A stretch of DNA of 64,000 nucleotides from Spirochaetota bacterium (GTDB lineage: Bacteria > Spirochaetota > UBA4802 > UBA5550), in contig JAXGNG010000003.1 of assembly GCA_040768125.1 (NCBI GenBank), positions 476,408 to 540,407 on the forward strand, written 5' to 3'. The notes under the pieces are model-generated. The model was not told the origin of the DNA. It ran no database searches and saw nothing but the letters and a program-made list of their open reading frames with translations. Shown piece after piece: positions 2,419 to 45,666 of this stretch. Made by a program: the position numbers and the translations under genes. Every line of letters begins with the position of its first letter. Positions within the stretch are counted from its first letter, which is position 1.

Positions 2419-2440
2419 TAATAGAAATTATTTTAAGCAT

Positions 2441-5423: not shown

Positions 5424-5439
5424 ATAGGTATTGAAAGGA

Positions 5440-6549
5440 ATGAGACAAAAAATGCGTTTTAAAAGTGGGATATATTCCAAACGTAAAATATATGCCGTGG
5501 ACCTCTTTTGCGGAGCTGGTGGATTGACAAACGGCCTTGAAAAATCCGGTATCGATGTTCGACTCGGTGTCGATATCGATCCCGCATGTGAATATCCTTA
5601 TTCGGCAAATAACAAGGCAGATTTTCTACTTAAATCGGTCGAAGAGCTCGAAACCCGAGATTTTAAAACTGCATTCCGGAAAAATGGCATATGTCTTTTG
5701 GCAGGATGTGCACCTTGTCAAACCTTTTCAAAATATAACCAGAAGGCAACCCCGGAAGATAAACGCTGGTGGTTGCTACTTCAATTCTCTCGTCTTGTTA
5801 AGGAACTCTCTCCCGAGTTGGTGACAATGGAAAATGTACCTGGACTCGTTGAAAGGGATGTGTTCAAAAAATTTATTGGTGTTCTAAAAAGAACTAATTA
5901 TTATTTGAGTATTACAATAGTCAATTGTGAGGATTATGGTGTTCCTCAACATAGACAGAGGCTAGTTCTATTGGCATCGAAACTTGCACCTATTAGTTTG
6001 TTGTCTCCTGTTGAATTCGGGGCTGATCGCATAACTGTTCGTGAAAGTATCGAGAATTTGCCACGATTGAGGGCTGGTGAGACTCATGGGGACGATCCAC
6101 TGCATCAGGTTTCGACATTATCAGAAATCAACATGAAACGTATCAAGGCATCACGGCCTGGTGGGACATGGAATGATTGGGATAAGAAATTGGTTGCCGA
6201 TTGTCACAAGAAGAGAAAAGGAAAAACATATCAAAGTGTATATGGGCGTATGTGTTGGGACGAGCCAGCTCCTACAATAACAACGCAATTCTTCGGATTC
6301 GGGAATGGACGTTTTGGGCATCCTCGGCAAAATCGTGCCATCTCGTTGCGAGAAGGTGCAATTCTCCAGAGTTTTCCGAAGAATTATGAATTCGCACCTC
6401 CAGGACAACTCATTTACAAAAAAGCGGTTGGTAGGCTTATTGGCAATGCAGTGCCACCAAAACTCGGAGAAGTGATCGGTCTCAGTATTGTAAATCATGT
6501 CGAAGCATGGATAAAAATGAGAACCCATAAAAAAAGCAATGCAAAGTGA
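5440..6549 (+). CDS. dcm: DNA (cytosine-5) methyltransferase (DrmMII-like)
   Basis: Motif I DLFCGAGG, motif IV GCAPCQ, motif VI ENVPG, motif VIII QHRQR, and motif X IGNAVPP. Confidence 0.92.
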   Translation: MRQKMRFKSGIYSKRKIYAVDLFCGAGGLTNGLEKSGIDVRLGVDIDPACEYPYSANNKADFLLKSVEELETRDFKTAFRKNGICLLAGCAPCQTFSKYNQKATPEDKRWWLLLQFSRLVKELSPELVTMENVPGLVERDVFKKFIGVLKRTNYYLSITIVNCEDYGVPQHRQRLVLLASKLAPISLLSPVEFGADRITVRESIENLPRLRAGETHGDDPLHQVSTLSEINMKRIKASRPGGTWNDWDKKLVADCHKKRKGKTYQSVYGRMCWDEPAPTITTQFFGFGNGRFGHPRQNRAISLREGAILQSFPKNYEFAPPGQLIYKKAVGRLIGNAVPPKLGEVIGLSIVNHVEAWIKMRTHKKSNAK

Positions 6550-9500: not shown

Positions 9501-9718
9501 ATTCCAGTCTGCAAACCGTGCAATTGACAATCTGGCCAGAGGACGAGCGCAACCAATTGAAGCAGGATATCGAGGCGTTGAAAGCCAGACTCGCCCGTAT
9601 TCCTGAAGAGGAGAAAAACGAGGTTACTGCAATCGAGAGCAGCTATGCCAATCCCACTGCCCGAACGTTTCCCGTCGCCATTCTTTTTATAGTGCCAATT
9701 TCGTGGAGTGGAAAATAA
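6539..9718 (+). CDS. drmD: DISARM SNF2-like helicase DrmD
   Basis: PEPGQLVEVRRRQW N-terminus, LIADDVGLGKT, VVDEAH, LSATPHNG, ATDAASEGIDLQ and EQRNGRIDR. Overlaps the dcm stop. Confidence 0.92.
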   Translation: MQSEIPEDIGFESEDYRRHRIVPEPGQLVEVRRRQWIVGDVQASAISSSGNGRQHLVTLTALDEDSLGESVQVLWELEPGAHILERAGLPKITGWDNSEKLEAFLDAVRWGAATNADRSFIQSPFRSGITIEDYQLDPLVRAIDMARVNLLIADDVGLGKTIEAGLVIQELLVRHRARSVMIVCPASLQVKWRTEMQEKFGLEFRIVDTDYVKTLRRERGIHANPWTSFPRLVSSMDWMKSGEGLRLLKDILPPHMTYPRKFDILVVDEAHNVAPAAATRYALESQRTRLIRTLAPHFSHRLFLSATPHNGYQESFTSLLELLDDQRFARSVMPDERQLNRVMVRRMKSDIVDADGQPVFPIRRLQCIEIAYSDEEQNIHRLLHDFTAARTSSVKGTRYEFGTDFVHMLLKKRLFSSPMAFAITLAKHRDTLLRGRPKTVSSLDERILRRAIVRSEEEYSDESKVEEAQIEAVELASEMAVALGETERAMLDRLSDWAEKYRNRVDAKANAILHWLETYLKPEGHWNEKRVILFTEYRATHIWLHQILTANGYGGDRLAILHGSMRPDEREAVKAAFQTHPIVAPVRILLATDAASEGIDLQNHCNYLIHIEIPWNPNVMEQRNGRIDRHGQRQKEVFIWHPVSKGFDPSVISRHRKLGEIEGDHEYLMRAVLKVDTIREDLGSVGPVIASQIEEAMHGRRTNLDTSAAEEKAAKARRFIAAERKLQEKIARLHDKLVEAKTDFHLAPENVHRAVEIGLELAEKPPLKCFSISDIPDGKVFEVPVLPGSWGRATIGLEHPHTGVRRPITFDHEVAKSRDDVVLVHLEHKLVQMSLRLLREEIWKLDDVKLLHRVAVRAVPDDELDLPMVAIWSRLVVTGGGHHRLHEELTLSGGDLEHKSFRRITQVSKLEELVGKAMPTALDNDLFEILKDRFDSHEKAILAAVEARSRDRLKYLENTLNRRKESEIADLTAVLDDLAKSIRKELTDSSLQTVQLTIWPEDERNQLKQDIEALKARLARIPEEEKNEVTAIESSYANPTARTFPVAILFIVPISWSGK

Positions 9719-9720
9719 CG

Positions 9721-10344
9721 ATGAAATGGCAAGAATACCAAAATGCGGTTTCTGTTTTCTATGAACAATTGGAAGGATTCGGTGATGTTCGTCACAATTT
9801 ATTCTTGCCTGATGTTGTCACGGGACAACGAAGACAAATTGATGTTATGATAGAACTGAACGAGCGTGGACACTCGCTCAAGATGCTCGTTGATGCAAAA
9901 TTTCACGCCACCCCACTTGATGTGAAGGATATCGAAGAGGTCTTTTCACTTTCTAAAGCAGTCGGTGCTAATAAGGCAGTCATTGTTGCAGCGAATGGGT
10001 ATACAGAACCTGCAATGGTCAAGGCTAAGTTCCTTCAGTGTGACCTGATGACCCTCACTCTCGAAGAAGCGTTGGATCTTGTTGTTCCTGACAAATGGAA
10101 AATGTGCCCTATTTGTAACACCGATTGTATCGTTCTTGATCAGAATGGAATGATTCAACTTGGAAATGGACTGGTCTTGTGGTGGTTGGCAGGCCAATGT
10201 CGTGAATGTAAGTGTGCACGTGTTCACTGCCAAGATTGTGGCATGAAAATGTTCATTGAAATTGGCAGATCCATGGAGTGCGGATGCGGCCATGAATGGT
10301 CAAGTACATCTGAAGGCGTATCCATCGACTTATTTCAAAAATAA
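9721..10344 (+). CDS. Mrr-family restriction endonuclease with C-terminal Cys-rich zinc-ribbon domain
   Basis: RQIDVMI...VDAKF...KAVIVAANGYT is Mrr_cat-like; CPIC, CREC, CQDC and CGCG follow. Confidence 0.75.
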   Translation: MKWQEYQNAVSVFYEQLEGFGDVRHNLFLPDVVTGQRRQIDVMIELNERGHSLKMLVDAKFHATPLDVKDIEEVFSLSKAVGANKAVIVAANGYTEPAMVKAKFLQCDLMTLTLEEALDLVVPDKWKMCPICNTDCIVLDQNGMIQLGNGLVLWWLAGQCRECKCARVHCQDCGMKMFIEIGRSMECGCGHEWSSTSEGVSIDLFQK

Positions 10345-10352
10345 CCATAATA

Positions 10353-13300
10353 ATGAAAAAAATATCACAGCATACGGAGTGGCTTTCCCTAATCGAGTTG
10401 TCTGGGCCATTTCTCGCCATACCGATCCTGGAGAAGATATATCCACAGGGTTTGGATGTGATAGAGACTCCCAAACGGCAACGTCTTCGTGCAGCATATG
10501 ACGAATGGTGCGAAGCAGTCGAGAACGAAGACCCATTACTTCCCGAGCTCCATCGCGAGTGGATTCGACTCGTGTTCACGGAAATTCTCGAATACGACGA
10601 ATCGACATTGAAGTCGGATGCGGAGAGTGGCAAATCCTACGCTACGACTTCTCCAGAACGAACCGAGACTTTCGTGCCAGACTGGTTGATTGTATCGCCT
10701 ACTGACAACATTCCTCATCTTTTCGTTTCCATCCAACCTCCAGAAACCGATTTCGATAGGGTACACAAGGATGACAGATGGCCAGCGTCACTCGTCGAAC
10801 GCATGACGGCACTCTGCCGAGCATACAATGTTCGTTTGGGGATGATCACCGACGGAGAACGGTGGATGCTGGTAAACGCTCCGGTGGGAGGGACATCGAG
10901 CGACGCTTCGTGGTACGCCCGCCTTTGGTTCCATGAGCCGGTCACTCTCAAGGCATTCCAATCGCTATGGAGCGTGAGGCGTTGTTTCGGCCCATCGGAC
11001 GAGACCTTGGAATCCTTGCTGGATAGATCGCTCGAACATAACGAGGAGATCACTGACACCCTAGGCGAGCAGGTCCGTCGTGCGGTAGAGGTTCTGGTCC
11101 AGTGTTTGGACAAGGCCGATGCGGATCGCAACAGGGAGTTGCTCCGGGATGTCACGCCTGCCGAGCTCTACGAAGCCGGGCTGACCGTGATGATGCGCCT
11201 GGTATTCGTTCTTTGCGCCGAAGAGCGCGGACTTTTATTGTTTGGTGATCCCGTCTATGATGAGTGTTATGCGGTGTCCACTCTGCGATCGCAACTCGCC
11301 GAGGAAGCCGATCGCCATGGCAATGAAGTGCTTGATCGTCGGCACGATGCATGGGCTCGACTCCTATCGGTGTTCAGGGCCGTCTATGGCGGGATCGAAC
11401 ACGAATCACTGCGAATGCCCGCATTGGGGGGGTCCTTGTTCGATCCGGATCGGTTTCCATTCCTGGAAGGTCGGCTCAAGGGGACGAACTGGCGCGATTC
11501 GGATGCCATCCCTCTTCCAATAGACAACAGGACGGTTCTACTTCTCTTGAATTCGCTTCAATTGCTCGAACAACATGGGGGGGCCCTGTTACTGTCCTAC
11601 CGTGCGCTTGATGTCGAACAGATCGGCCATGTCTACGAAGGTCTTCTCGAGTACACCGTCGTTCGTGTGCCATCCGTGACCATAGGACTGATAGGTTCCA
11701 AAAAAGCAAAAAATTCGAATCTCGCTCTTTCCGAGCTCGAATCGGCATGTATGGACGGAGTAGACAACCTCGTTACATTGGTGAAGACAACTACCGACCG
11801 CAGTGAGTCGGCCATTCGCAGTGCGTTGGCTCGACCAGTCGAAGACGCTGATTTGGGATGCCTGCTCGCCGTATGTGGGGGAGACATGCCTCTCGTCGAA
11901 CGTATCCATCCGTTCGTCAACCTGATCCGAACTGACGCATGGGACGATCCTATCATCTATCGTGAAGGAGCCTTCATGGTCACGCTGGGAGCCGTTAGAC
12001 GTGAGACAGGCACGCACTATACACCGAAATCGTTAACAGAAAGCATCGTCGAAACAACGCTGGAACCGGTCGTCTACGTTGGGCCGTCTGAAGGAAAGCC
12101 ACGTGATGAGTGGAAACTGAAAACTCCTACCGAGTTGCTGGACCTCAAGATTTGCGATCCCGCAATGGGGTCCGGAGCGTTCCTCGTACAGGCATGCCGA
12201 TGGCTCGCCGAGAGGTTGGTCGAGACCTGGGCGATTCAAGAGGCAAAAGGTGGATTCATCAATGCCGATGGTGAAGTCATGCCGTCGGCCGGCGGAGCTG
12301 ACCCCATTCCCGGCAGTATGTACGAACGCCTGTCAATTGCAAGACGTCTGATTGCCGAACGATGTCTTTATGGTGTGGATGTGAATCCATTCGCCGTCGA
12401 ACTCGCCAAGCTTTCAATCTGGTTGGTTACTCTGGCCAAAGGTCGCCCCTTCGGGTTCCTCGACCACAATCTGCGTCATGGAGACAGTCTCCTGGGCATT
12501 TATCGGTTGGATCAACTCACAAAATTCGAACCAAATCCAGTGGACGAGAACTACCAGCAGCGTATTTTCGGCCAAAAAGTGACCGGTATGGTAGCCGAAG
12601 CTCTGGAAATCAGGAAGCGACTTCGTTCCGTTCCGATTCGGGACATCCGCGATGTCGAAGCCATGGCGGCTCTCAATTTTCAGGCCGAGGCGAAGCTGGA
12701 GACTTCGGAACGTCTCGCAGATGCTTTCATGGGTATAGTGCTAGCCAGTGACCACGATAGCGCTGTCCGATCGCGGATGGATTCCCTAGCGGTCGTGGCG
12801 GACCGCGCGGTGGAAGGTGATACGGAGACTCTCGCCTCCATCAATCGTATGGCTGCACTTGATCTCGCCAAAGGCGTGCTCGACCATCGTCATCGCAGGC
12901 CGTTCCATTGGCCGCTTGAGTTCCCAGAGGTCTTCGTCCGTTCTGACAGCGGCTTCGATGCCTTCATCGGGAATCCGCCCTTCTTAGGCAACAGGCTTTG
13001 GAAAGGAACACATGGGCCAGCCCTCCAGCGTATCGTTCAAATGATACTCGAAGCGTCTCCTGGAAAGGTCGATCTTTGCGTCGCCTTCCATAGAAGGGCA
13101 GCTACTCTCCTGAAGAGCGGCGGGTCATATGGCCTTTTGGCCACGAGCAATATCGCCGAAGGTAGTGCTCTCTCTGTCGGTCTTGAGCGAATTGCAGTCC
13201 TAGGTGATTTTTACTTCACACGCAAGGGAATACCGTGGCCTGGAACAGCCTCGACGGTAGTCGCCATTGTGTGCTTCTGGAAGGGGACTTGGACAGGATT

Positions 13301-14381
13301 ACGCGACTGTGATGGTGAAGCTTGTGAGAAAATCAGCCCTCGACTCCAACCGGAAATTGCCGAGGGCTGGGAACCAAAGGTTCTTGAGGACGCCATGTTC
13401 ACTTTTGCCGGGGTCGACAACAGTAAGGGACTTGCTTTCGTCGTTACGGAACAGCATCCGTGGTTCGAGCGACTACGCTTGGAACGGGGATCGCTGCTGC
13501 GTCCCTATGTCACCGGAGATGACATCACTAGATCGTCACTTACGCGTATCGAACGATGGGCTCTGGACATTGCTGACATGCCCTTGGATATAATCGCAAA
13601 GAATTGGCCCATCGCTTACCGCTTTCTCACTGAGACTGTGAAACCGACTAGGACCCCGGAAGCTTTGAAGAGCTATAATGGGTTGATTAACAGATGGTGG
13701 CAGTTCTGGAACCACCGGGCGGACCAGATGAGGAGGCTCCGTCGACAGAAGAAATGCGTGGCCTTTGCCAAGGCCGCAAAGTATCCCATCTGTATTGTCG
13801 CTCCAACAGACTGGATTTACACGAATATGGTCACGTTGGTCGAGTCAACACGTGAAGACACCCTTGCAATCTGCCTGAGTTCGATGTTACAGGCTTGGCT
13901 ACGCAATTACTCTGTTCGCAGTCTCGGTCGTGATAACAAGACTATGAGGCTATCGATTAGTGAAGCTTTCACTACATTCCCGCTTCCTGACCAGCCGATC
14001 GCGATTGAGGGTGTCGATGCTGCCGAAGAGTTCCTGACCAATCTCGTCTCCTGGAGTAAACGTAAATCAGCCGGAATGACCGATGCGATGAACGCCGTAC
14101 ACTCACCAAAGACAACTGACGGTGAGATCATCCGATTGCGCGAACTATTGGAGCGTATTGATACAGCAGTCGCAAGCGCGTATGACTGGTCTTGTCTGGA
14201 CCTGTCTCACGATTTTCGCGAAGAGATGGACCCAGATGGCGGTACCATCGTTCGGCATGGTCTAGCAAGAACCATGTACGATCTGGTACTGTCTAATCTG
14301 ATCATTCTGAACCGTTCTATATATCAGGCAAGCGATCATTCGGGATTAGAGACCTGCAGATGGAACGCCAAAAAAGATTAG
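10353..14381 (+). CDS. drmMI: DISARM N6-adenine methyltransferase DrmMI, copy 1 (type IIG-like; MmeI/type IIL-like TRD)
   Basis: GTHYTPK, ICDPAMGSGAFL, FHWPLEFPEVF and FIGNPPFLG; C-terminal RWWQF...EAFTTFPLP. Confidence 0.88.
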   Translation: MKKISQHTEWLSLIELSGPFLAIPILEKIYPQGLDVIETPKRQRLRAAYDEWCEAVENEDPLLPELHREWIRLVFTEILEYDESTLKSDAESGKSYATTSPERTETFVPDWLIVSPTDNIPHLFVSIQPPETDFDRVHKDDRWPASLVERMTALCRAYNVRLGMITDGERWMLVNAPVGGTSSDASWYARLWFHEPVTLKAFQSLWSVRRCFGPSDETLESLLDRSLEHNEEITDTLGEQVRRAVEVLVQCLDKADADRNRELLRDVTPAELYEAGLTVMMRLVFVLCAEERGLLLFGDPVYDECYAVSTLRSQLAEEADRHGNEVLDRRHDAWARLLSVFRAVYGGIEHESLRMPALGGSLFDPDRFPFLEGRLKGTNWRDSDAIPLPIDNRTVLLLLNSLQLLEQHGGALLLSYRALDVEQIGHVYEGLLEYTVVRVPSVTIGLIGSKKAKNSNLALSELESACMDGVDNLVTLVKTTTDRSESAIRSALARPVEDADLGCLLAVCGGDMPLVERIHPFVNLIRTDAWDDPIIYREGAFMVTLGAVRRETGTHYTPKSLTESIVETTLEPVVYVGPSEGKPRDEWKLKTPTELLDLKICDPAMGSGAFLVQACRWLAERLVETWAIQEAKGGFINADGEVMPSAGGADPIPGSMYERLSIARRLIAERCLYGVDVNPFAVELAKLSIWLVTLAKGRPFGFLDHNLRHGDSLLGIYRLDQLTKFEPNPVDENYQQRIFGQKVTGMVAEALEIRKRLRSVPIRDIRDVEAMAALNFQAEAKLETSERLADAFMGIVLASDHDSAVRSRMDSLAVVADRAVEGDTETLASINRMAALDLAKGVLDHRHRRPFHWPLEFPEVFVRSDSGFDAFIGNPPFLGNRLWKGTHGPALQRIVQMILEASPGKVDLCVAFHRRAATLLKSGGSYGLLATSNIAEGSALSVGLERIAVLGDFYFTRKGIPWPGTASTVVAIVCFWKGTWTGLRDCDGEACEKISPRLQPEIAEGWEPKVLEDAMFTFAGVDNSKGLAFVVTEQHPWFERLRLERGSLLRPYVTGDDITRSSLTRIERWALDIADMPLDIIAKNWPIAYRFLTETVKPTRTPEALKSYNGLINRWWQFWNHRADQMRRLRRQKKCVAFAKAAKYPICIVAPTDWIYTNMVTLVESTREDTLAICLSSMLQAWLRNYSVRSLGRDNKTMRLSISEAFTTFPLPDQPIAIEGVDAAEEFLTNLVSWSKRKSAGMTDAMNAVHSPKTTDGEIIRLRELLERIDTAVASAYDWSCLDLSHDFREEMDPDGGTIVRHGLARTMYDLVLSNLIILNRSIYQASDHSGLETCRWNAKKD
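10371..12518 (+). repeat. Copy 1 of a ~2.1 kb imperfect direct repeat (drmMI N-terminal part)
   Basis: Colinear with 17181-19328 at a constant 6810-nt offset at the positions checked. Includes an 83-nt perfect match (11055-11137 = 17865-17947). Confidence 0.92.
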
Positions 14382-14491
14382 ACTCGACGTTGTGTATCCA
14401 GACAATTTAGTCCGGTTTTCGATACTCCGAAGACGGATGAAACGGCGGCTGTTGTCACACAAGCGAAAACTTCCTTGCGGAGGCAGAAACA

Positions 14492-15916
14492 ATGACAAGA
14501 CTATCCGGTGATGTAGCACAAGCTAGCCCAACGAAACAGTTCTTCGTGTCGATGCTGACACGAGACATCACCCTCGCCGATGCAATTCTCGATCTGGTCG
14601 ACAATTGCCTTGACGGTTCCCTTCGAGTGGCGGGTGGTAAACGGGTCGATTACTCGAAACATTTTGTGAAGATTGAGATTGCAGTTGATCACTTTTCGAT
14701 AGAAGACAACTGTGGTGGGATTCCGCGCGACGTCGCGAAAAATTATGCATTCAAGATGGGGCGCGAGCCTGATGACGACCGCGATTCAGATACCGAAACC
14801 ATTGGCATGTACGGTGTCGGTATGAAACGTGCAATCTTCAAGATGGGGCGTAACGCGCTAGTGAGGACGAGGTGCGACCATGATACGTTCGAAGTGCCGA
14901 TCACATCAGAATGGCTTGATGCCAAGAACTGGGACCCTCTACCGATCAACGAATTAACTGGAGCAAATAAGGAACTCAATGAACCGGGGACTATAATCTT
15001 TGTCAACGATCTCTATGAAGGTGTCTCAAGACACTTTTCTAATGCGGCTTTTGAGAATGAGGTACGTACTGCCATCTCCGAGCATTTTACGATGTTTCTC
15101 CAATGGGGTTTGAAGGTGGAACTCAATGGCACACCCATAGAGTCGGTCCGCGTCGAAGTGCTCGTTTCAATGGGCGAAAATCGCCCTGCACCGTTCATAT
15201 ACCAGAAGATGATCGACGATGTTCTCGTCTCCATCGCGGTTGGCTTGAACACTGGCAAGAGCCTCGGCAACGAGGATGAGGATGAGGGTGATTATGGTTT
15301 CGAAAGAGATCGTTCGTCGGTGACGGCTGGTTGGACGGTGTTCTGCAACGACCGTGCCGTCATCGTTGGTGACAAGAGCCGCCTCACGGGGTGGGGCGAC
15401 GGTATTCCACTCTATCATGCGCAATTTGCAATCATAACGGGCATCATTGAGTTTCGTTCGAAACATGCCGAAAAGCTCCCAGTTACGACAACGAAGCGTG
15501 CACTCGACACGTCGTCAAACGTCTGGCTCGAGTCACTTGTAAAGATGAAAGAGGGCATGAGAATCTGGATCTCATACACGAACCAGTGGAAGAACCATCC
15601 ACGGGCGGATCAGTCGAGCTACTGGGAAGATGCTCGGCCGATGTCCTTAAGCGTGGCCATCAAGAAAGTCGCTTCACGTAAGTCCACAAAGAAAACAGGC
15701 AGCGTTATTGAGTTCAACCCCCAGAAAGCCAAGGTCCTTCCGGAGCCAGAGAACAGGAAGCCATCGTCGAAGAAGATCGTGTTCTCCCGCCCAGTAGAGG
15801 AATTACGTCTTGTCTCAAAGATGCTGTTCGATGACCCAGATGAAAAACCTGGCATTGTCGGCGACAAGTGCTTCGATATGCAGCTCGCGAAGGCCAAGAA
15901 ACGAGGAGCTGAATAA
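14492..15916 (+). CDS. GHKL (MORC/HATPase_c_3-like) ATPase
   Basis: N-box AILDLVDNCLD, G1 IEDNCGGI, G2 IGMYGVGMKRA, and transducer-like CNDR...WG...GII.F. Confidence 0.85.
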   Translation: MTRLSGDVAQASPTKQFFVSMLTRDITLADAILDLVDNCLDGSLRVAGGKRVDYSKHFVKIEIAVDHFSIEDNCGGIPRDVAKNYAFKMGREPDDDRDSDTETIGMYGVGMKRAIFKMGRNALVRTRCDHDTFEVPITSEWLDAKNWDPLPINELTGANKELNEPGTIIFVNDLYEGVSRHFSNAAFENEVRTAISEHFTMFLQWGLKVELNGTPIESVRVEVLVSMGENRPAPFIYQKMIDDVLVSIAVGLNTGKSLGNEDEDEGDYGFERDRSSVTAGWTVFCNDRAVIVGDKSRLTGWGDGIPLYHAQFAIITGIIEFRSKHAEKLPVTTTKRALDTSSNVWLESLVKMKEGMRIWISYTNQWKNHPRADQSSYWEDARPMSLSVAIKKVASRKSTKKTGSVIEFNPQKAKVLPEPENRKPSSKKIVFSRPVEELRLVSKMLFDDPDEKPGIVGDKCFDMQLAKAKKRGAE

Positions 15917-16911
15917 TGAGAACCGTTTTTTCACTACCCTATCAGTTGCGGCCGAACAAGGCTGTAGATAGAGAACTTTTCCTGTCGTTGCTTATGCGGT
16001 TAGCCCCTGCGTTAGCTCTTGAGAAGTACCACTATGTAGGGCTTGGAGGTCCGTTTCTTGAGGACTTCAGGCTGGTCCATGCTAGACTCGGCATCGCGAA
16101 TATGACGTGTATTGAAATCGAAGAGGAAGTGCATAAGCGCCAGCTTTTCAATCGTCCGATCACAACAATAGAGTGCATCCACTCGACGCTTGAGGACTAC
16201 CTCGACGGACAGGACTTCGAAATACCCACCATCATCTGGTTCGACTTTAACGAGCCTAAGGGAATTACAGCGCAGATTGAACGCTTCGCCCACACCATTG
16301 GGACCGTGCCGGTCGGCAGCGTGCTTCGCGTGACGTTGAACGCAAACCCGACATCTCTCGGGAAACCTGATATGATGGAAATATCTGTCGAGGTCGAAGG
16401 AGAGTCTTCCAAGGACCGTGCGGTGAAGCCGACGATCCAAGAGTGGCGCCTCGCGCGATTCAAGGAGCGCCTCGGCGCACTCTTTCCCAACGGCCTCACT
16501 GCCGAAGGAATGAGTTTCAAGACATACGGTCCGAGCCTACTACGTGTTCTCAAGTTGGCAGTAGACAAGGAAATCCTGAGCTATAGTGCCCGCCGAGTCG
16601 TCTGGGCGCTTGCCACTCACTACGCTGACGGCCAACCGATGGTGACTGCTACTCTCGTCGTATGCCATAAAGACGACACCATGATTGAAGAACTGGTTAA
16701 AAGTTGGGAATTCTATACGACAATCGAAACTCCCCATCGTCTCGACTTGCCAGTACTTTCAATTCGGGAGAGACTGACGATGGAGTCAAACGACAACGCC
16801 AAGGTTCACATAGGCTTCGAGCTACCGATCTCCGACATGGGTGAAAACCCATTCGAGGTTTTCAAAAAATTTTATCGCATCTACCCACACTTCTCGAAGG
16901 TCGAGTTCTGA
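15916..16911 (+). CDS. Putative class I SAM-dependent methyltransferase-fold protein (non-canonical; 'O-methyltransferase'-like)
   Basis: PNKAVDRELF N-terminus, YVGLGGPFLED (motif I-like), TCIEIE (motif II-like) and IIWFDF. TAATG coupling to the ATPase. Confidence 0.65.
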   Translation: MRTVFSLPYQLRPNKAVDRELFLSLLMRLAPALALEKYHYVGLGGPFLEDFRLVHARLGIANMTCIEIEEEVHKRQLFNRPITTIECIHSTLEDYLDGQDFEIPTIIWFDFNEPKGITAQIERFAHTIGTVPVGSVLRVTLNANPTSLGKPDMMEISVEVEGESSKDRAVKPTIQEWRLARFKERLGALFPNGLTAEGMSFKTYGPSLLRVLKLAVDKEILSYSARRVVWALATHYADGQPMVTATLVVCHKDDTMIEELVKSWEFYTTIETPHRLDLPVLSIRERLTMESNDNAKVHIGFELPISDMGENPFEVFKKFYRIYPHFSKVEF

Positions 16912-17156
16912 TAAAGAAAAACGATTTGGGAATGGAATGGGATGCAAGAGTATAAGTGCCTGGCTTATTCCGTCTTGGAGACAAGTGATTCTGATCGAAA
17001 AAGGTGATGGCAGGGAGTATCGTAGATTCCGCAGAGAGTGGGTGCCAGAGGGGGCAAGTCTGGTCTTACAAGAGACCCTGAACGATTCGATTGTGTGTTC
17101 CACCACCTCATTGATGCCGATGCCTCAGAAATGCGTTCTATTGAGGTTCTTACCTA

Positions 17157-20100
17157 ATGAAACGATTAACCCTTTCGCGACATACGGAGTGGCTTTCCCT
17201 AATTGAGTTGACCGGTCCTTTCCTCGCAGTACCAGTCTTGGAGAAGGCGTTTCCACAGGGTTTAGACATAATAGAGATACCTAAACGGCAACGCCTCCGT
17301 GCGGCTTATGATGAATGGTGCGAGGCAGTCGAGAACGAAGACCCATTACTTCCCGAGCTCCACCGTGAATGGATTCGACTCGTATTTACGGAAATCCTCG
17401 AATATGATGGTTTGACCTTGAAGACGAATCCAGAGATCATAAAAACTTATTCAGTGACTTCCCCTGAACGAAGCGATGCTTTCGTACCAGATTGGCTAAT
17501 TACATCATCTTCCGACAGCAGACCTCGTTTGTTCATTTCCATCCAGCCTCCGGAAACCGATTTCTATCTAGTTCACAAGAACGACAAATGGCCTGCATCT
17601 CTGATCGAACGTATGATGGCACTCTGCCGAGCACATGCCGTGCGATTGGGGGTGATCACTGACGGCGAACTGTGGATGTTGGTCAATGCACCTGTGGGCG
17701 GGGTGTCGAGCAACGCATCGTGGTACGCCCGCATTTGGTTCCAGGAGCCGATCACCCTCAAGGCTTTCAAATCCCTGTGGAGTGTGAGACGCCTTTTCGG
17801 TCCTTCGGAAGAGACCGTGGAGGCACTACTCGACAGCTCTATGGAATACCACGAAGAGATCACAGACACCCTAGGCGAGCAGGTCCGTCGTGCGGTAGAG
17901 GTTCTGGTCCAGTGTTTGGACAAGGCCGATGCGGATCGCAACAGGGATTTGCTCCGGGATGTCTTGCCAGCCGAGCTCTACGAAGCCGGGCTGACCGTCA
18001 TGATGCGCCTTGTGTTTATTCTATGTGCCGAGGAGCGTGGACTCTTGCTCTCTGGGGATCCAGTCTACGACGAGAGTTATGCCGTGTCCACCCTGAGGGC
18101 ACAGCTCGCCGAAGATGCAGATTGTCATGGTTCCGAGGTGCTCGATCGTCGGCATGACGCATGGGCCCGAGTGCTATCGGTGTTCAGGGCCGTCTATGGC
18201 GGGATCGAACACGAATCGCTGCGGATGCCCCCATTGGGAGGTTCATTGTTCGATCCGGATCGGTTTCCATTCCTGGAAGGTCGGCTCAAGGGGACGAACT
18301 GGCACGATTCGGATGCAATCCCTCTCCCGATAGACAACAGGACGGTTCTACTTCTGTTGAACTCGCTTCAATTGCTCGAACAACACGGGGGAGCCCTTTT
18401 ACTTTCCTATAGGTCCCTAGACGTCGAGCAGATCGGCCATGTCTACGAAGGTCTTCTCGAATACACCGTCGTCCGTGTGCCATCCGTAACCATAGGACTG
18501 ATAGGTTCCAAAAAGGCGAAGAACCCGAATCTCGCTCTTTCCGAGCTCGAATTGGCACGCATGGACGGCGAAGATGCCCTCGTCGCCTTGGTGAAGGAAA
18601 CCACCGAACGCAGCGAGTCGGCCATACGCAATGCTCTGTCGTGTGAAGTCGAAGATGCGATCTTCGGACTCCTGCATGCTGTATGCGGGGGCGACACGAC
18701 ACTTGCGGAGCGAATCCGTCCGTTTGCCAACCTTGTCCGTACCGACGCCTGGGGGGATCCCATAGTCTATCGCGACGGTGCTTTTATGGTCACCATCGGT
18801 TCAGACCGTAGGGAAACGGGCACGCATTATACGCCCAAATCACTCACTGAAAGTATCGTCGAGACGACATTGGAACCGGTCGTCTATGTCGGGCCGTCCG
18901 AAGGAAAGCCACGTGATGGGTGGAAACTGAAAACTCCTGCCGAGTTGCTTGACCTCAAGATCTGCGATCCCGCAATGGGGTCAGGAGCGTTCCTCGTACA
19001 AGCCTGCCGATGGCTCGCTGAACGACTGGTCGAGGCATGGGTCGCCGAGGAGGCAATGGGCAGGTTCGTCAATGACGATGGTGAGGTTTTGCTGTTGGCC
19101 GGTGAATCCGATCCACTGCCTACCGATACTGACTATCGATTGCAAACCGCAAGACGTCTGATAGCCGAACGGTGTCTATATGGTGTGGACATCAATCCCC
19201 TTGCGGTCGAATTGGCCAAACTGTCAATATGGTTGGTGACCCTTGCGAAAGGAAGACCTTTCGGATTTCTTGATCACAACCTGCGATGTGGCGACAGTTT
19301 GCTGGGTATTCACCGACTGGATCAACTTACGTTGTTCAAAATGAATCCGGACGACAGTCCCTGCCAGTTGAGTATATTCGGCAAGAAGGTGGCAGGAACG
19401 GTCATCGAGGCGGAAGAAATCAGGAAGCGATTGCGATCTATCCCGATTCGGGATATGCGCGATATCGATACGATGGCCCATTTAAATGCTGAAATCAGGA
19501 AGAAACTCGGATCCATGGAGCTGGTTGCTGATGCAATGATCGGCGAGGTTCTTCGAGCCAACGGTAAAATGCGTGCCATCGAATCGGCTTTGGATTTCCT
19601 CGAAGTACAGGTAGACGCTTTTCTAAAAGGCGATGTGGAGACGAGGGAAACAATTGCCAAAAAGGCGTGTGAAGCTTTATCAATTGGTTTGTCAGAGGGC
19701 ATGCCCCCAAGAAAACCGTTTCATTGGCCTTTAGAATATCCAGAAATATTTGCATCAAATAATGGAGGATTCGATGTCATATTATGCAATCCACCGTTTG
19801 GAGCTATCAATTATTCAAAAAAATCGATGAGTGACCAATATACAATCCTGATAGAATATTGGAATAATTTCTATTTGTATCATTCAAAACGATTGAATTT
19901 CATGATGCTTTTTCTAGAAAGAATTCTATTCAACTTGTTAAACAAGACTAAACAGAGTTGTATTGGATTGATTTTAGATTTTAACTTTTTTGAGAAGATA
20001 TATGAATTATTGCGGTTGAATATCAATGATAGATATGAATTCAAACATATAGTATTTAATTTGAAATCTTTTTCGAATGTCAATAGCGGTCAATTGATAC

Positions 20101-20966
20101 TGATCCTTGGAGACAAAAAAAATCCTTCAAATGATTCAGAGGTTGTTGTCAGCCAAGGAAACCTGAACATTGATCATTTTTCAGTAAAACAAAGCAATTT
20201 GTTCAAAAAGAGTGTTGAAAAAATAAATTATTATAATTTAAAATATCTCGATAAATATTCTCATTTGGAAAATAATACTCTTTTTGAACCACTGGAGAAT
20301 TTTGTTGAATGTACATATGGAGTTGAATTGGGTGGAAAATCGATAACACATCCTTTGTTTATCTTTAATGAAAGAGCAGGCGATGCTGACTATATTCCTA
20401 TAATTGATCTGAATCAATTCGAAAATTTTTGTGATGTTAAATATCGATTTTATTTAAAATATGACATTGATTTGCAAAATAAAATCAACAAAAAGTATTC
20501 GAAATTGAATGTAGCATTGAGGAATAGATCGATTTGGGGAAATCCTCGCATTATATTGCGACAAAGTTCGAAAAGTCTGTGCGCAACAATCGATTACAAC
20601 GAAAGTGTTACATTGTTGAACGCTTTCCATATTTACAAAAGAACACCTGACACAGTGGATTTATTGTATATATTGGGTTTGTTGACTTCTGATATTATCA
20701 ACGATTATTGTAGTTATTCAGGTATCAACAAAATAGAAAAAGGGAAATTTCCTCAAATTAGAATAGAGAGTCTAAAAAAAATTCCTATTAGAATTATTAG
20801 TCGAGGCACTCCCGAAGAAATTATCTATAAAATGATAATCGAAGATACTGCCAAGATATTAAATATAAAAAAAAATATTGTTCGATCTAGTAATGAATTA
20901 AAAGATGTTGAAGGATTGAAAAATGCTTTAAATTTTAATGTTGAAGAACTATATTCTCGAAAATAA
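17157..20966 (+). CDS. drmMI: DISARM N6-adenine methyltransferase DrmMI, copy 2 (TaqI_C/Eco57I-like TRD)
   Basis: Same N-terminal motifs as copy 1, plus FHWPLEYPEIF and ILCNPPF. AT-rich TRD with PRIILRQ...YILGLLTS...FPQIRIESLKKIPI. Confidence 0.88.
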   Translation: MKRLTLSRHTEWLSLIELTGPFLAVPVLEKAFPQGLDIIEIPKRQRLRAAYDEWCEAVENEDPLLPELHREWIRLVFTEILEYDGLTLKTNPEIIKTYSVTSPERSDAFVPDWLITSSSDSRPRLFISIQPPETDFYLVHKNDKWPASLIERMMALCRAHAVRLGVITDGELWMLVNAPVGGVSSNASWYARIWFQEPITLKAFKSLWSVRRLFGPSEETVEALLDSSMEYHEEITDTLGEQVRRAVEVLVQCLDKADADRNRDLLRDVLPAELYEAGLTVMMRLVFILCAEERGLLLSGDPVYDESYAVSTLRAQLAEDADCHGSEVLDRRHDAWARVLSVFRAVYGGIEHESLRMPPLGGSLFDPDRFPFLEGRLKGTNWHDSDAIPLPIDNRTVLLLLNSLQLLEQHGGALLLSYRSLDVEQIGHVYEGLLEYTVVRVPSVTIGLIGSKKAKNPNLALSELELARMDGEDALVALVKETTERSESAIRNALSCEVEDAIFGLLHAVCGGDTTLAERIRPFANLVRTDAWGDPIVYRDGAFMVTIGSDRRETGTHYTPKSLTESIVETTLEPVVYVGPSEGKPRDGWKLKTPAELLDLKICDPAMGSGAFLVQACRWLAERLVEAWVAEEAMGRFVNDDGEVLLLAGESDPLPTDTDYRLQTARRLIAERCLYGVDINPLAVELAKLSIWLVTLAKGRPFGFLDHNLRCGDSLLGIHRLDQLTLFKMNPDDSPCQLSIFGKKVAGTVIEAEEIRKRLRSIPIRDMRDIDTMAHLNAEIRKKLGSMELVADAMIGEVLRANGKMRAIESALDFLEVQVDAFLKGDVETRETIAKKACEALSIGLSEGMPPRKPFHWPLEYPEIFASNNGGFDVILCNPPFGAINYSKKSMSDQYTILIEYWNNFYLYHSKRLNFMMLFLERILFNLLNKTKQSCIGLILDFNFFEKIYELLRLNINDRYEFKHIVFNLKSFSNVNSGQLILILGDKKNPSNDSEVVVSQGNLNIDHFSVKQSNLFKKSVEKINYYNLKYLDKYSHLENNTLFEPLENFVECTYGVELGGKSITHPLFIFNERAGDADYIPIIDLNQFENFCDVKYRFYLKYDIDLQNKINKKYSKLNVALRNRSIWGNPRIILRQSSKSLCATIDYNESVTLLNAFHIYKRTPDTVDLLYILGLLTSDIINDYCSYSGINKIEKGKFPQIRIESLKKIPIRIISRGTPEEIIYKMIIEDTAKILNIKKNIVRSSNELKDVEGLKNALNFNVEELYSRK
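17181..19328 (+). repeat. Copy 2 of the drmMI direct repeat
   Basis: Counterpart of 10371-12518. Confidence 0.92.
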
Positions 20967-21034
20967 TCGAATCCGAAGAAATCAGAATGGACTTCTCGAT
21001 TCTATTGTGAATTTGATAATTTAAAATCAGGGTT

Positions 21035-24000
21035 ATGATGATGGTTGTTGATAATAGTAGCGTCAGAAACGCATGGGTGATTGATTTAAGAATGGATGCT
21101 AATTTGAATGGATTTCTGATCGAAATTCATGATGAATCGCAAGGTCTTGTCGGAATCCGAGATGGAGATGGTCTGATAATTGTAGATCAAATTGGTAATA
21201 ATCATAATATAATATACTTTGCTCGTGTATACCGCGTAAGGCGTACCCATGATGGAATCGTGCTCCTTCTTGATGGATTGATCCCTGTCACAAGTCCTCG
21301 ACCTATCGATGATTTCGGTATGCAACCATCGACCGTGACAGTTTCACGTCTGGAATGGCCAAGCTTCGTATCGGCACTGAAGCTGGCCTGTGGCATTGAC
21401 TTCTCTGCGTTTCCCGTTTTAGAAGGGAAAACTGCAGTGGAACAGAAATATATCAGGGACCTCCTGCAATGGGCGGTCGAAGATGACTTGCTTGGCCCCG
21501 CGGACGGTCCAGTCGAGGAAATCATAGGGATGAGTGTGCGGGATCGGTATCTAGTCGGCAAGCTAGCTCCACCAGATACACAATTGTCGGACGACCAAGT
21601 TGAGGATCTACCGGATGCAACCACCTCCGATTCCGAAACAAACGATCGTGAGGCAGATGCTTCGACGAGCAACTCGTTGGTGCCCTCGTCTATCGGTTTT
21701 ACCTTCTGCGTGGACGGATTGGCGGAATCCGTTGAGGTTCGTGCGAGTTGGGGAAGATACGAGCGAACGGAGAGTGAGCGTACGACCGACGAAGGGAAAC
21801 CGCTCCGTTGCTGGAAAAGAATACCGTCGGGAGGCATGGCGACCATATCGTTCGATCGAAGAATCGTTACCCCTATAGTCATGGACAGCGCTTGTCCCGA
21901 TGTGTCTGTCCAGGGAACTATCGGCGATTTGCTGCCGAACGGTTATCGACTAGTCACATTATTCCTGGTGAACGATCAGACCAAGCCAGATGAAAACCAG
22001 GATCAGGCGTGGATTTTCCAGCCCGAACTGATTGTCCGAGACCCCCATGGACAATCCATCTTCAGAAAGAGACCTTTTCAATCCGACATCGGTTGGGACG
22101 AGGAGCGAGAAGCGCTGGAGATGATATACCGGCGGAGGGTGGAATTCGCTGTCGGACATGGGGTTTCCGTCCATGCCACACCTTCGTCTGACGATCCTGA
22201 AATGGCGATAGAGGTGCGAACCCGAGTACTTCCGCGTTACGAGGTCGCTGTCACCGAGACGCCCGGGACCTCTCTAGAGGACAGACCAGTCATGAAGCAA
22301 CTTGTCTCGGATGGTTCTCTAGACATGCTACATCTCGCAGAAATGAATCGTGATGGTGTTGTCACCGTTCTTGATGCGTTGGCGAACGATTATGCCGCAT
22401 GGATCGAAGAACAGAGGGCTAGGATAGGAATCGACGTGCAGGGGTACGATTCTTCTGCGATGGCCGCCCTTGAAAGATGTGAATCCATTCTCGAAAGAAT
22501 TCGAGAAGGGATTGGGGTTCTGAAATCGGACGACGCGACCTTCGAAGCGTTTCGTTTCGCCAACCGTTCGATGTCGTCGCAACGTGTACACAGTGTCTAT
22601 TCACTCAAGGTGCGGCGAGGTGAAACCGTCGATCTTTCGAGCGTCGACGTTTCCGAAAACCGCTCGTGGAGACCGTTCCAGTTGGCCTTCATCCTGCTGT
22701 CCATTCCTGCCCTGGCGAATCCAACTCATCGCGATCGGACAGAACCGGTGGAAGGCTATGCCGATCTTCTTTGGTTCCCGACTGGAGGTGGGAAGACCGA
22801 AGCCTACCTCGGAGTGGCCGCTTTCACAATGGCGATCCGTAGATTGCAGGGGCGCCTCGGAGGGTTCGACGGAAGCCGTGGTTTAGCGGTGATTATGCGC
22901 TACACGCTGCGTTTGCTCACTATCCAGCAGTTCCAGAGGGCCACTGCCTTGATGTGTGCCATGGAGGTATTGAGGAGGGCAGATACTGCGAAGTGGGGTA
23001 CCACGCCCTTTACGATTGGACTCTGGGTGGGGCAGCGTGTGACACCAAACACCACCCAGGAAAGCCATGAAGCTATCGAGCGGGAAAGGGACGGGAAATA
23101 CGGAACTGGTTCAACACCTGCACAACTCGTCTTCTGCCCTTGGTGCGGTGCAGAGATCATACCCGGGCGAGACATCAGGGTAGTACGCGAAATCGGTCGG
23201 ACTTTCATCTACTGCGGAGACAAATATGGATCCTGCGAATTCGGGAAGGTAAAATCACCGGAACTCGGTCTACCGGTGCTTGTGGTGGATGACGAGATAT
23301 ACAGACATCCGCCTTCCATGCTGATAGCTACGGTCGATAAGTTCGCTATGATGGCCTGGCGTGGTCAGGTGCGAACGCTGTTCGGAAGGGTCGATACGGA
23401 ATGTCCTCGTCACGGTCTTCTGTGGCCCGGAGCAGATTGTGGCGGAACTCATCGGAAGAAAGGGTCTCTTCCCGCGACAACACCACGACAGGTGATGCCG
23501 ATCCGCCCTCCGGATTTGATCATCCAGGATGAGTTCCATCTCATCAGCGGTCCTTTGGGTACCATGGTCGGTCTTTATGAAACGGCAGTGGACGAGCTTT
23601 CCGGATGGAACCTGGACGGTAAGACCGTGAGGCCCAAAATAATCGCGTCGACCGCAACTGTTCGCAAGGCGGACGAACAAGTCAACAATGTCTTTCTTCG
23701 CCGCGTAGCTGTCTTTCCTCCGCATGGTATCGATGTGGAGGACAATTTCTTTTCAGTGCAGCGTTCGATCGATTTGAAACCAGGACGTCAATACATTGGC
23801 ATATGTTCGCCTGGCAGTTCTCGACCCGCCGTACTCATCCGGGTATACGTGGCGCTACTTACGGCCGCTCAATTCCTGTTCGAAAGATTCGGGCAGGCTG
23901 CCGATCCGTATATGACCTTGGTAGGCTATTTCAATTCGCTACGCGAACTGGGCGGAATGCGTAGGCTCGCCGAAGACGATGTCCAGACCCGCTCCTATCG

Positions 24001-27931: not shown

Positions 27932-28045
27932 ATATGATATTGACTGTAAAGGACGAAGCATTTGCTGTCGGCGGTGAATGTTCCATGATTATAACTTGAT
28001 ATACTATAATTCGGTAATATAGAATCATAAATTGTAGTGACCTAT

Positions 28046-43699: not shown

Positions 43700-43720
43700 G
43701 GGGCGCCGGGCCGGTCTCCG

Positions 43721-45490: not shown

Positions 45491-45666
45491 AGTTTCCTTT
45501 ATATAGTATTGTGATGAATGTACCATCCTCTTTCAGGTATTGCCGAATATTGTCAATACAAATAATTGAAAAATGGGAAACGGGCCCCGCCGTCTGAATA
45601 ACCGCGCCGGGGAGAAACGGGACCATTGACGAACGGGTCCCTTTTCCCCGTAACGAGTAATATTTA

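Follow-up and report, generated by a model that had tools for sequence, protein, structure and literature searches.

How DISARM senses methylation and avoids the genome of its own host is a question on which two genes of the locus presented here may bear. One clade of class-1 DISARM carries in the middle of its operon an extra, extremely conserved pair of genes for an ATPase and a methyltransferase-like protein, and one can ask what such a pair does there. We addressed this question for the window, i.e., the whole analysed stretch of 64,000 nucleotides, whose sequence traces to anaerobic-digester metagenomes. None of the RNA-seq runs searched for the window sequence carries it.

The first gene of the pair (positions 14492–15916, plus strand) encodes a GHKL (Bergerat-fold) ATPase of 474 aa, which also has a transducer domain of the S5-like type and, at its C-terminus, a small conserved helical domain. 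The second gene (15916–16911, plus strand) encodes a 331-aa protein of the class I SAM-methyltransferase fold, which belongs to PF20553 (“putative O-methyltransferase”) and is referred to below as MT35. An earlier note on this DNA described a GHKL gene coupled via TAATG to a gene for a 331-aa Rossmann-fold protein; both ORFs are indeed intact, the start of MT35 overlaps the GHKL stop, and the genes are translationally coupled, with a Shine–Dalgarno-like GGAGG/GAGGAG located 8–9 nt 5′ of each start. In a scan for promoters and terminators at 14300–17250, the counts deviated by no more than about 1.6 sd from those of shuffled controls. GHKL lies directly 5′ of MT35, with the stop and start overlapping or abutting, in all 46 loci for which upstream sequence is present, and the same coupling occurs in further relatives beyond these loci. 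The pairwise distances of the two proteins co-vary (r = 0.73).

Class-1 DISARM is defined by a core of drmA, drmB, and drmC with drmD (SNF2) and drmMI (N6-adenine methylase) in front of it; DrmMII occurs in some of these systems as well. All five genes are matched in the window by PADLOC and Pfam and form, together with a DrmMII-type C5 methylase, one co-directional cluster on the plus strand, so the locus is class-1 DISARM. The C5 cytosine DNA methyltransferase (5431–6549; PADLOC MTase_II/DrmMII, E about 1e-87), which is the likely marking partner of the pair, is followed by the DrmD SNF2 helicase of DISARM class 1 (6539–9718; PADLOC DrmD/DrmA models, E = 0). Between drmD and drmMI lies a gene with the Mrr_cat restriction-endonuclease fold (9703–10344; Pfam Mrr_cat, E 6.6e-7), which has no listed counterpart in any of the 20 compared genome loci. 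The first drmMI paralogue, encoding an MmeI-like N6-adenine methylase (10353–14381; PADLOC DrmMI, E = 0), is located immediately 5′ of the pair, in the same order as in the relatives. The second one (17157–20966; PADLOC) is an extra gene between the pair and drmA; its product is 77% identical to that of the first paralogue over the first 876 aa, and the C-terminus beyond is unrelated. The DrmA helicase (21035–24883; Pfam Helicase_C), which is 47–62% identical to DrmA of the relatives, DrmB (MZB/DUF1998; 24880–26730; Pfam MZB), and the PLD-family nuclease DrmC (26687–27481; Pfam PLDc_2) complete the core. The gene for the very-short-patch repair endonuclease Vsr (27482–27931; Pfam Vsr, E 1.8e-28) is displaced in the window, where it follows drmC, whereas in the relatives it adjoins the C5 methylase gene. 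Thus, the pair sits between two drmMI paralogues with DrmD, DrmA, DrmB, and DrmC encoded around it, and its nesting inside DISARM, suggested previously, is confirmed.

Twenty genome loci, spread over several phyla, and one plasmid have close relatives of the pair (67–82% MT35 identity) in the same slot. Where the flanks are of sufficient length, class-1 DISARM genes surround the pair in these 20 loci and in the Microvirga plasmid alike, the usual order being C5MT–Vsr–DrmD–DrmMI–GHKL–MT35–DrmA–DrmB–DrmC. Orthologues of the window C5 methylase were found in these relatives, and a C5 methylase gene adjoins the pair or belongs to the same operon in every locus of the clade with enough flank; all loci with sufficient upstream flank also have Vsr. 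Nesting in DISARM is therefore the rule for the whole DISARM clade and not a peculiarity of the window.

No other part of the operon is as well conserved as the pair (77% versus 40–63%). The ML trees of the pair and of DrmA+DrmB disagree, and the AU test rejects either tree when applied to the data of the other (p = 1.6e-30 and 9e-5); the pair has thus been swapped between DISARM cores. It is not among the defining genes of class-1 DISARM: the six-gene system of Serratia sp. SCBI works without GHKL or MT35 (bioRxiv 10.1101/2021.12.28.474362), whereas the clade of the window has the pair between drmMI and drmA, and the window itself adds the second drmMI, the Mrr-fold gene, and the displaced vsr. 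The closest plasmid DISARM, on Deinococcus p96k, also lacks the pair. DISARM as such therefore does not depend on it.

GHKL ATPases are recognised by motif I (ExxxNxxD), the G1 (DxGxG) and G2 (GxxGxG) boxes, and the ATP-lid. Judged by its sequence motifs, the first protein of the pair belongs to this group: N38, D41, D72-x-x-G75-G76, and G105-x-x-G108-x-G110 are invariant, as is the transducer Lys335 (K335), and the protein matches Pfam HATPase_c_3 (E 3.8e-9) and corresponds to phrog_20521 of PHROG, whose function is labelled as unknown. In motif I, an invariant Asp34 replaces the usual catalytic Glu, and because of this substitution ATP turnover may be slow or absent. The best fold matches of the AF2 model (pLDDT 78) are Hsp90/TRAP1, then SMCHD1, MORC2, and GyrB (TM about 0.45), and structural alignment pairs the second domain with the transducer/middle domains of Hsp90, SMCHD1, MORC2, and GyrB. 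MORC proteins in the strict sense combine the GHKL and S5 modules with a MORC-specific signature motif. The label “MORC-like” given earlier to the window ATPase is only loosely right, as Hsp90/TRAP1 lead the fold matches and MORC2 ranks 41st, after the Hsp90-type proteins.

MT35 matches PF20553 (Methyltransf_35) over profile positions 5–309 of 309 (E 3.4e-81, 273 bits at a cut-off of 27), as do all 107 diverse relatives examined, and corresponds to phrog_19983 of PHROG. In the class I fold, a Rossmann-like sheet of seven strands, strand 1 leads into a glycine-rich loop, and strands 2 and 4 end in an acidic and a polar residue, respectively. The AF2 model (pLDDT 71) shows a seven-stranded sheet with the strand order and helices of this fold, and the corresponding positions G44, E67, and D110 are (near-)invariant across the family; on the strength of this model, we assign MT35 to the class I SAM-dependent methyltransferase fold. 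Family-wide invariants are K15, R19, Y40, W108, D110, Y236, and E285. The fold search gave 197 PDB matches at E ≤ 0.001, with the SAM-methyltransferase fold in 50 of the 50 listed. The top one is Trm1, and generic and cation-dependent O-methyltransferases are also present, Rv0187, norbelladine OMT, and 3dr5 being among the matches of lower rmsd. In the model, D110 and N142 are placed at the strand ends (strands 4 and 5) where cation-dependent O-methyltransferases (COMT/CCoAOMT-like) bind metal through acidic/amide residues. No member of the family matched Pfam Methyltransf_3/24, and one gave a weak match to CmcI; a comparison of the 107 members with Pfam at a lax threshold revealed no recurrent second family, and therefore no subfamily is assigned.

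The MT35 sequence lacks motif IV, (D/N/S)PP(Y/F/W), of the N6-adenine/N4-cytosine DNA amino-methyltransferases, the end of its strand 4 reading W-F-D-F-N-E-P. It also lacks the PC (motif IV) and ENV (motif VI) of the C5 cytosine methylases and has no Pfam DNA_methylase match, while both PC and ENV are present in the methylases which neighbour the pair in the stand-alone triads described below. The earlier statement that the 331-aa protein has neither NPPY/DPPY nor PC/ENV motifs is thus correct. MT35 may conceivably methylate a non-DNA target, which the note had proposed as one option. Pfam and structure searches detected no nuclease domain in GHKL or MT35, in agreement with what had been proposed from the first reading of the two genes.

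To characterise the pair outside DISARM, we used 12 exact-protein context look-ups together with single-protein scans. Distant relatives (about 30% identity) keep the GHKL–MT35 coupling without DISARM in the moron slot of a Pf inovirus, in lambdoid prophages (10 IMG/VR contigs), in a Tn7-like element, and in integrase islands. The carriers of the pair further include a plasmid and a site that adjoins McrBC-like genes. Recurrence without DISARM, which the earlier note had named as a check, was therefore found on phages, transposons, and islands, and the association of the pair with defence is borne out. GHKL–MT35 is a separable, widespread, and horizontally mobile module. The idea of a stand-alone two-gene unit holds with respect to this separability, but the unit is not self-contained: 10 of 12 independent non-DISARM contexts have a C5 cytosine methylase next to the pair, and two do not. 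Vsr is adjacent in five contexts and missing from seven. Convergent layouts in the style of restriction–modification (R-M) are frequent, and NERD-UvrD is co-encoded with the pair in some relatives.

The methylases of the stand-alone triads comprise one lineage (39–66% identity), conserved even before motif IX, and therefore the methylase represents a dedicated third component. These triads contain no recognisable nuclease, so they have no obvious restriction activity. Those of Pseudomonas phage PfAC20 (PP058144) and of a Leclercia lambdoid prophage share with the window the same two families and the overlapping genes (GHKL 32–39% and MT35 26–32% identical to the window proteins); they differ from it by the absence of DISARM genes and by a C5 methylase of another lineage, 22–33% identical to that of the window. 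Their genes are annotated only as “ATP-binding protein”, “hypothetical protein”, or incomplete R-M, and in the PfAC20 paper the slot of the pair was scored as “incomplete RM, methylase only” (PMC11878078). Other Pf phages carry defence genes in accessory regions (PMC11878078).

That the pair has no match to a named system, as had been suspected, is consistent with the database searches. PADLOC-DB v2.0.0 gave no family at E ≤ 0.01 for the window GHKL or MT35, NCBIfam gave no match for either protein, and PDB sequence searches with the single proteins and the family profile returned nothing usable; the stand-alone GHKL relatives gave marginal, generic-GHKL matches to MzaB in PADLOC (E about 1e-3). 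We found no paper on “Methyltransf_35” or “PF20553” and no description of the pair in the literature on DISARM, GHKL, Vsr, MORC, and anti-phage systems.

The closest description is that of the paraMORC proteins, GHKL+S5 ATPases associated with cytosine methylases, Vsr, and SFII helicases, which Iyer, Abhiman, and Aravind predicted to be R-M components in 2008 (PMC2292703); this model was restated in 2026. Like them, the window protein combines the GHKL ATPase with a transducer-like second domain; restriction-fold nucleases, SFII helicases, Vsr, and cytosine methylases are encoded in its neighbourhoods, and its distribution is patchy and laterally mobile. It differs from them by Asp instead of Glu in motif I and by the obligate partner with the PF20553 SAM-methyltransferase fold, unmentioned in PMC2292703; it also lacks the conserved ExxxH motif of paraMORC2 and the fused nuclease, TIR, or HxH domain of paraMORC3–5. 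The neighbourhoods of the pair thus correspond to the description of paraMORC-type R-M-associated GHKL ATPases, with no assignment to any of paraMORC1–5. Tiamat, GHKL-Shedu (VcSduA/paraMORC3), and Mza also rely on a GHL-type ATPase to defend against phages, and methylases and helicases are often encoded nearby, but these systems carry a PD-(D/E)xK nuclease or have one alongside, and none has an MT35 partner. VcSduA/paraMORC3-Shedu and Tiamat were rejected as relatives for being nuclease-bearing and devoid of this partner, and CapK/CapS (a GHKL kinase with a STAS repressor) for a different architecture and partner.

We consider it somewhat probable that the pair is the non-methylase half of a cytosine-methylation-linked, R-M-like module of the paraMORC kind, which in the window is plugged into DISARM between drmMI and drmA. 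In favour of this reading are the strict coupling and the co-varying distances of GHKL and MT35, the association with C5 methylases, the mobile carriers and defence slots, the exchange between DISARM cores, and the paraMORC precedent. GHKL and MT35 would be two subunits of one module working with the C5 methylase, and often with Vsr too, to discriminate own from foreign DNA in an R-M-like manner. The C5 methylase would mark the host DNA, GHKL may act as an ATP-driven dimeric clamp on DNA without the mark, and MT35 would be its SAM-dependent catalytic or licensing partner. By analogy with MutL recruiting UvrD, the pair could pass unmarked DNA to the co-encoded helicase-nucleases (DrmA/DrmB/DrmC and Mrr here, NERD-UvrD elsewhere), and in the stand-alone triads it may act alone or via host enzymes.

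A more daring and quite tentative suggestion is that the pair is itself a nuclease-free immune effector, in which the Hsp90/MORC-like clamp and the SAM-dependent transferase read cytosine methylation and either disable unmarked DNA or license the co-encoded helicase-nuclease (DrmAB/DrmC, NERD-UvrD). Disabling might mean clamping or compacting the unmarked DNA, or chemically modifying this DNA or a host factor. The pair would then be a portable “reader” cassette captured repeatedly by different marking systems, and perhaps a prokaryotic counterpart of the methylation-linked MORC silencing in eukaryotes.

The residues at the catalytic positions of MT35 are as compatible with a modification enzyme as with an effector, and this speaks against our main reading, the R-M-like module. 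The same holds for the nuclease-free stand-alone triads, the two contexts in which no methylase adjoins the pair, the Asp in motif I of GHKL, and the DISARM systems that do without the pair. MT35 could belong to the modification side, adding a second DNA or RNA mark or elaborating the cytosine mark, with GHKL loading or regulating it; the outcome would be a broader self-protection or an anti-restriction armour for the carrier phages and plasmids. Phage-borne methylases are classically protective, temperate phages do carry the pair together with the methylase, and the conservation of G44, E67, and D110 across the family fits the predicted fold of an active class I methyltransferase. We nevertheless find this rather unlikely: MT35 has neither a variable target-recognition region nor the catalytic motifs of DNA methylases, a GHKL clamp would be unusual for a plain modification enzyme, and the convergent R-M-like layouts and the drmMI/drmA nesting fit an effector or a sensor better.

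The recurrence of Vsr raises the question of repair. A MutL-like ATPase and its partner could boost the Vsr-type repair of T:G mismatches which arise from 5-methylcytosine deamination, so that a mobile cytosine methylase would be carried at a smaller mutational cost. Stimulation of Vsr by MutL is established for E. coli, the GHKL+transducer arrangement is reminiscent of the N-terminal module of MutL, and Vsr accompanies the pair in 5 of the 12 stand-alone contexts as well as in the DISARM-clade loci with a long enough upstream flank. We regard this role as distinctly improbable given the seven stand-alone contexts without Vsr, the absence from GHKL of the MutL C-terminal dimerisation/endonuclease domain, and the unexpectedness of phage moron slots and defence islands as a home for a repair factor; moreover, it leaves MT35 without a role.

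The proposal of the earlier note that MT35 senses SAM/SAH, with the pair protecting DISARM or R-M from anti-restriction enzymes by which phages deplete SAM, found no support and appears very unlikely: it draws on the SAM-binding fold of MT35 and its location among SAM-dependent methylases only, contexts and sequences give no evidence of sensing, and what consistently accompanies the pair is a C5 methylase in particular rather than SAM-dependent enzymes in general. The residues conserved family-wide at catalytic positions fit an enzyme better, the invariant active-site-like ones extending beyond the cofactor pocket (K15, R19, W108, D110, Y236, and E285). A regulatory role of GHKL, as a kinase-like switch similar to CapK/CapS or an ATP-dependent controller of the neighbouring methylase/DISARM genes, agrees with the mid-operon position of the pair and with the existence of GHKL kinases regulating immune operons (PMC13373217), but it is hardly to be expected from a protein whose second domain is of the transducer/S5-like type, as is usual in GHL ATPases and not in kinases, with no HTH or STAS partner and with MT35 not being a DNA-binding regulator fold.

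The pair is thus not confined to DISARM; on phages and transposons, too, it constantly accompanies a dedicated cytosine methylase. Annotation pipelines label such loci as “ATP-binding protein / O-methyltransferase” and treat the neighbouring methylase as orphaned or as an incomplete R-M system. If the pair reads or acts on the methyl mark, it would represent a new R-M-like mechanism without a built-in nuclease and a tractable bacterial model for the MORC-type methylation-coupled ATPases.

The GHKL ATPase and MT35 genes form a strictly coupled unit, which is associated with C5 cytosine methylases (C5MT), Vsr and sometimes helicase-nucleases, and which is carried by mobile elements and occupies defence slots. 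In the window (14492-16911), both open reading frames are intact: the GHKL gene (14492-15916, 474 aa) matches Pfam HATPase_c_3 (E 3.8e-9), and the MT35 gene (15916-16911, 331 aa) matches over its full length Pfam PF20553, Methyltransf_35 (E 3.4e-81), labelled “putative O-methyltransferase”. The TAATG coupling described in the earlier note is confirmed, the last A of the GHKL TAA stop being the first base of the MT35 ATG, and each start is preceded, at 8-9 nt, by GGAGG or GAGGAG. As that note supposed, the pair corresponds to no named system in the PADLOC v2 defence models; NCBIfam models also matched neither protein, and in PHROGs they belong to families of unknown function (GHKL to phrog_20521, MT35 to phrog_19983).

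The GHKL model (pLDDT 78) aligns at TM ~0.45 with the two-domain ATPase modules of Hsp90/TRAP1/GRP94, SMCHD1, MORC2 and GyrB; it is therefore an ATPase of the GHL type, equipped with a transducer domain. The previous label “MORC-like” fits only loosely: Hsp90/TRAP1 rank first, ahead of SMCHD1, MORC2 and GyrB. Residues invariant in relatives down to 35% identity are N38, D41, D72-N-C-G-G76 and G105-x-Y-G-x-G110, as well as the “TTTKR” lysine K335, the “AGWT..CNDR” block and the C-terminal “VG..CF” helix. In MutL, MORC, Hsp90 and GyrB, the position four residues before the motif I Asn is occupied by the catalytic Glu. Here it is Asp34 (14591-14593), and all 25 relatives in the alignment, as distant as 35% identity, likewise have Asp; this replacement suggests slow or altered ATP hydrolysis.

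The MT35 model (pLDDT 71, with both ends ill-defined) has the seven-stranded class I SAM-methyltransferase fold, in agreement with the SAM-binding-like motifs noticed previously. Its best PDB match is the tRNA methyltransferase Trm1 (E 1e-6, TM 0.41), several cation-dependent O-methyltransferases occur among the lower-rmsd matches, and a viral structure library returned generic methyltransferases. The top two viral matches, giant-virus proteins of ~300-350 aa labelled “chromo domain-containing”, have E values of 1e-6 and 1e-5, and one PF20553 member has a marginal Pfam Chromo_2 match; these may be chance similarities. K15, R19, Y40, W108, D110, Y236 and E285 are invariant throughout the family, while near-invariant positions are G44 in the glycine loop, E67 at the end of strand 2 and T140/N142/A143 at the end of strand 5. 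Probably, MT35 binds SAM and is catalytic. Its sequence contains none of the DPPY/NPPY, PC and ENV motifs, as had been stated, and neither a variable target-recognition region nor a nuclease motif. That the pair provides a second modification activity seems to us unlikely.

The nesting inside DISARM was recognised correctly, and this DISARM is of class 1. All genes of the defence island are co-directional, with ~50% G+C (58-67% in the flanks, from ~42,000 to 60,000). They encode a GmrSD-like protein (451-2418), DUF2779 (2339-3931), a 312-aa ORF with weak matches to methyl-directed type II restriction enzymes (3991-4929; E 2.5e-6), a DrmMII-type C5 cytosine methylase (5431-6549), DrmD (6539-9718), an Mrr_cat protein (9703-10344), a first DrmMI (10353-14381), the pair, a second DrmMI (17157-20966), DrmA (21035-24883), DrmB (24880-26730), DrmC (26687-27481) and Vsr (27482-27931). 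A 452-aa ORF at 28037-29395 has a weak ZacA (Azaca) match (E 1.5e-5). The Mrr_cat gene, of restriction-endonuclease fold, overlaps the end of drmD and has a counterpart in none of the 20 genome loci compared. The DrmMI paralogues share 77% identity in their first 876 aa and have unrelated C-termini; their genes form direct repeats (~80% DNA identity, 6810 bp apart) on either side of the pair. No inverted repeats were found. Recombination between them would remove the pair together with the 3′ end of the first drmMI, leaving one chimeric drmMI.

An MT35 scan of species-representative genomes revealed 20 loci (67-82% identity) in Myxococcota, Planctomycetota, Acidimicrobiia and Alpha-, Beta- and Gammaproteobacteria, and the pair lies inside class-1 DISARM in every one of the 20 with sufficient flank. 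The usual gene order is C5MT-Vsr-DrmD-DrmMI-GHKL-MT35-DrmA-DrmB-DrmC; the Microvirga terrae plasmid pR24_2 carries the same operon with overlapping genes, the pair being annotated as “ATP-binding protein” and “O-methyltransferase”. Since this nesting is general in the clade, it is not the pair that sets the window apart, but its second drmMI, Mrr-fold gene and displaced vsr. Among the variants, the pair is 3′ of DrmC in L005, C5MT-Vsr-GHKL-MT35 is followed by the contig end in L015, and L030 (62% identity) has GHKL-MT35-DrmA-NERD/UvrD-DrmB-DrmC, with the NERD-UvrD helicase-nuclease gene at 8495-10213 of that locus. In L016, a second SNF2/DrmD-like gene (10720-14121) follows the pair instead of DrmA directly, and MT35 has a 14-residue deletion in a variable loop.

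Median identity of the clade proteins to those of the window is 77% for both GHKL and MT35, 63% for DrmB, 58% for DrmD, 56% for DrmA, 52% for C5MT, 51-55% for DrmMI, 42% for DrmC and 40% for Vsr. Pairwise distances correlate at r = 0.97 between DrmA and DrmB and at r = 0.73 between GHKL and MT35, and at only r = 0.2-0.4 between pair and core. Maximum-likelihood trees of GHKL+MT35 and DrmA+DrmB have several clades in common and differ in where the window, L003 and L005 fall; in the AU test, either data set rejects the tree built from the other (p = 1.6e-30 and 9e-5). In L005, an ordinary pair is joined to a very divergent core. This tree conflict and high identity suggest a cassette under very strong constraint, which has been exchanged between DISARM cores.

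PF20553 comprises 1,522 clusters at 50% identity; among the matches listed, full-length members have ~310-350 aa, and the few longer ones carry no added domain. Exact-protein look-ups of members ~30% identical to the window MT35 provided non-DISARM contexts, where the GHKL and MT35 genes are always together and mostly overlap. The order is GHKL-MT35-C5MT in the Pseudomonas inovirus PfAC20 and a Saccharospirillum island, C5MT-GHKL-MT35 in locus L049, C5MT-GHKL-MT35-Vsr in a verrucomicrobial locus and, adjoining an integrase fragment, in L051, and Vsr-GHKL-MT35-C5MT in the Tn7-like cargo L053. The C5MT is convergent with the pair in a Leclercia-type lambdoid prophage, 10 IMG/VR contigs and L055 (adjoining McrBC-like genes); in L036, the pair faces, in convergent orientation, genes for another GHKL protein and C5MT (+ Vsr), and in Rhodoferax NERD/UvrD-GHKL-MT35 is convergent with C5MT-Vsr. 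The Rhodoferax NERD-UvrD helicase-nuclease gene (L034, 3736-5598) is directly upstream of the stand-alone pair. In L036 (8303-11204) and L053 (7101-9291), the C5 methylase shares an operon with a further, unrelated HATPase_c_3 protein (594 aa, weakly similar to PD-Lambda-5_A, and 339 aa, respectively), so each locus has two different GHKL ATPases. The pSymA plasmid of Sinorhizobium meliloti (L057, 5950-7335) encodes a GHKL homologue 29.5% identical to that of the window, and a plasmid-wide search found no MT35 match on this plasmid; related GHKL ATPases may therefore have other partners.

The stand-alone two-gene defence module proposed in the earlier note stands in so far as the pair recurs outside DISARM, but of the 12 independent non-DISARM contexts, 10 have an adjacent C5MT and two lack it. 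The methylases of these triads (C5MT, GHKL and MT35) share 39-66% identity, are conserved even in the part preceding motif IX, and are closer to each other than are the accompanying GHKL and MT35 proteins; the triad methylase is thus a dedicated third component, and the DISARM clade uses a different C5MT lineage (22-33% identity only). The PfAC20 paper reports the defence genes TA, PfsE, IetAS, Avs and AbiE in the accessory regions of the other Pf phages it covers, and for PfAC20 itself only “cytosine methyltransferase, incomplete R-M” (PMC11878078). Vsr is present in five of the 12 contexts; a helper function in very-short-patch repair appears less likely still than a second modification activity. 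The SAM/SAH-sensing guard suggested previously and a regulatory switch are both highly improbable.

Iyer, Abhiman and Aravind (2008; PMC2292703) predicted from gene neighbourhoods that paraMORC GHKL+S5 ATPases are R-M components acting MutL-like between the methyl mark and nucleases/helicases, and the neighbourhood signature of the pair agrees with theirs. The 2026 Tiamat preprint restates this model, the methylases adjoining MORCs/paraMORCs being mostly cytosine-targeting. On balance, though by a slight inclination, we take the pair for the non-methylase half of a paraMORC-type R-M-like module, captured here by DISARM between drmMI and drmA. Our literature search found no paper on the MT35 partner, the triad or the DISARM nesting, nor an experimental test of them. 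GHKL ATPases in cytosine-methylase-linked R-M-like operons were already predicted in 2008, and both families are in Pfam and PHROGs; the pair is neither unique to the window nor categorically new.

The pair is dispensable for DISARM, as two comparisons show. Among plasmid-borne DrmA proteins, the closest (59%) belongs to Deinococcus sp. AJ005 p96k (L056), with the pair-less operon DrmD-DrmMI-DrmA-DrmB-DrmC, and only one out of 103 plasmids encoding a DrmA relative also has MT35. In p96k (5431-23305), the genes immediately behind drmC encode Vsr, a C5 methylase and a different HATPase_c_3 protein of 664 aa, which may be a non-orthologous replacement of the GHKL component. Since the characterised class-1 DISARM of Serratia sp. 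SCBI also functions without the pair (bioRxiv 10.1101/2021.12.28.474362), in the clade carrying it the pair is at most an accessory layer of DISARM, one that could couple the state of the methyl mark to DrmAB/DrmC.
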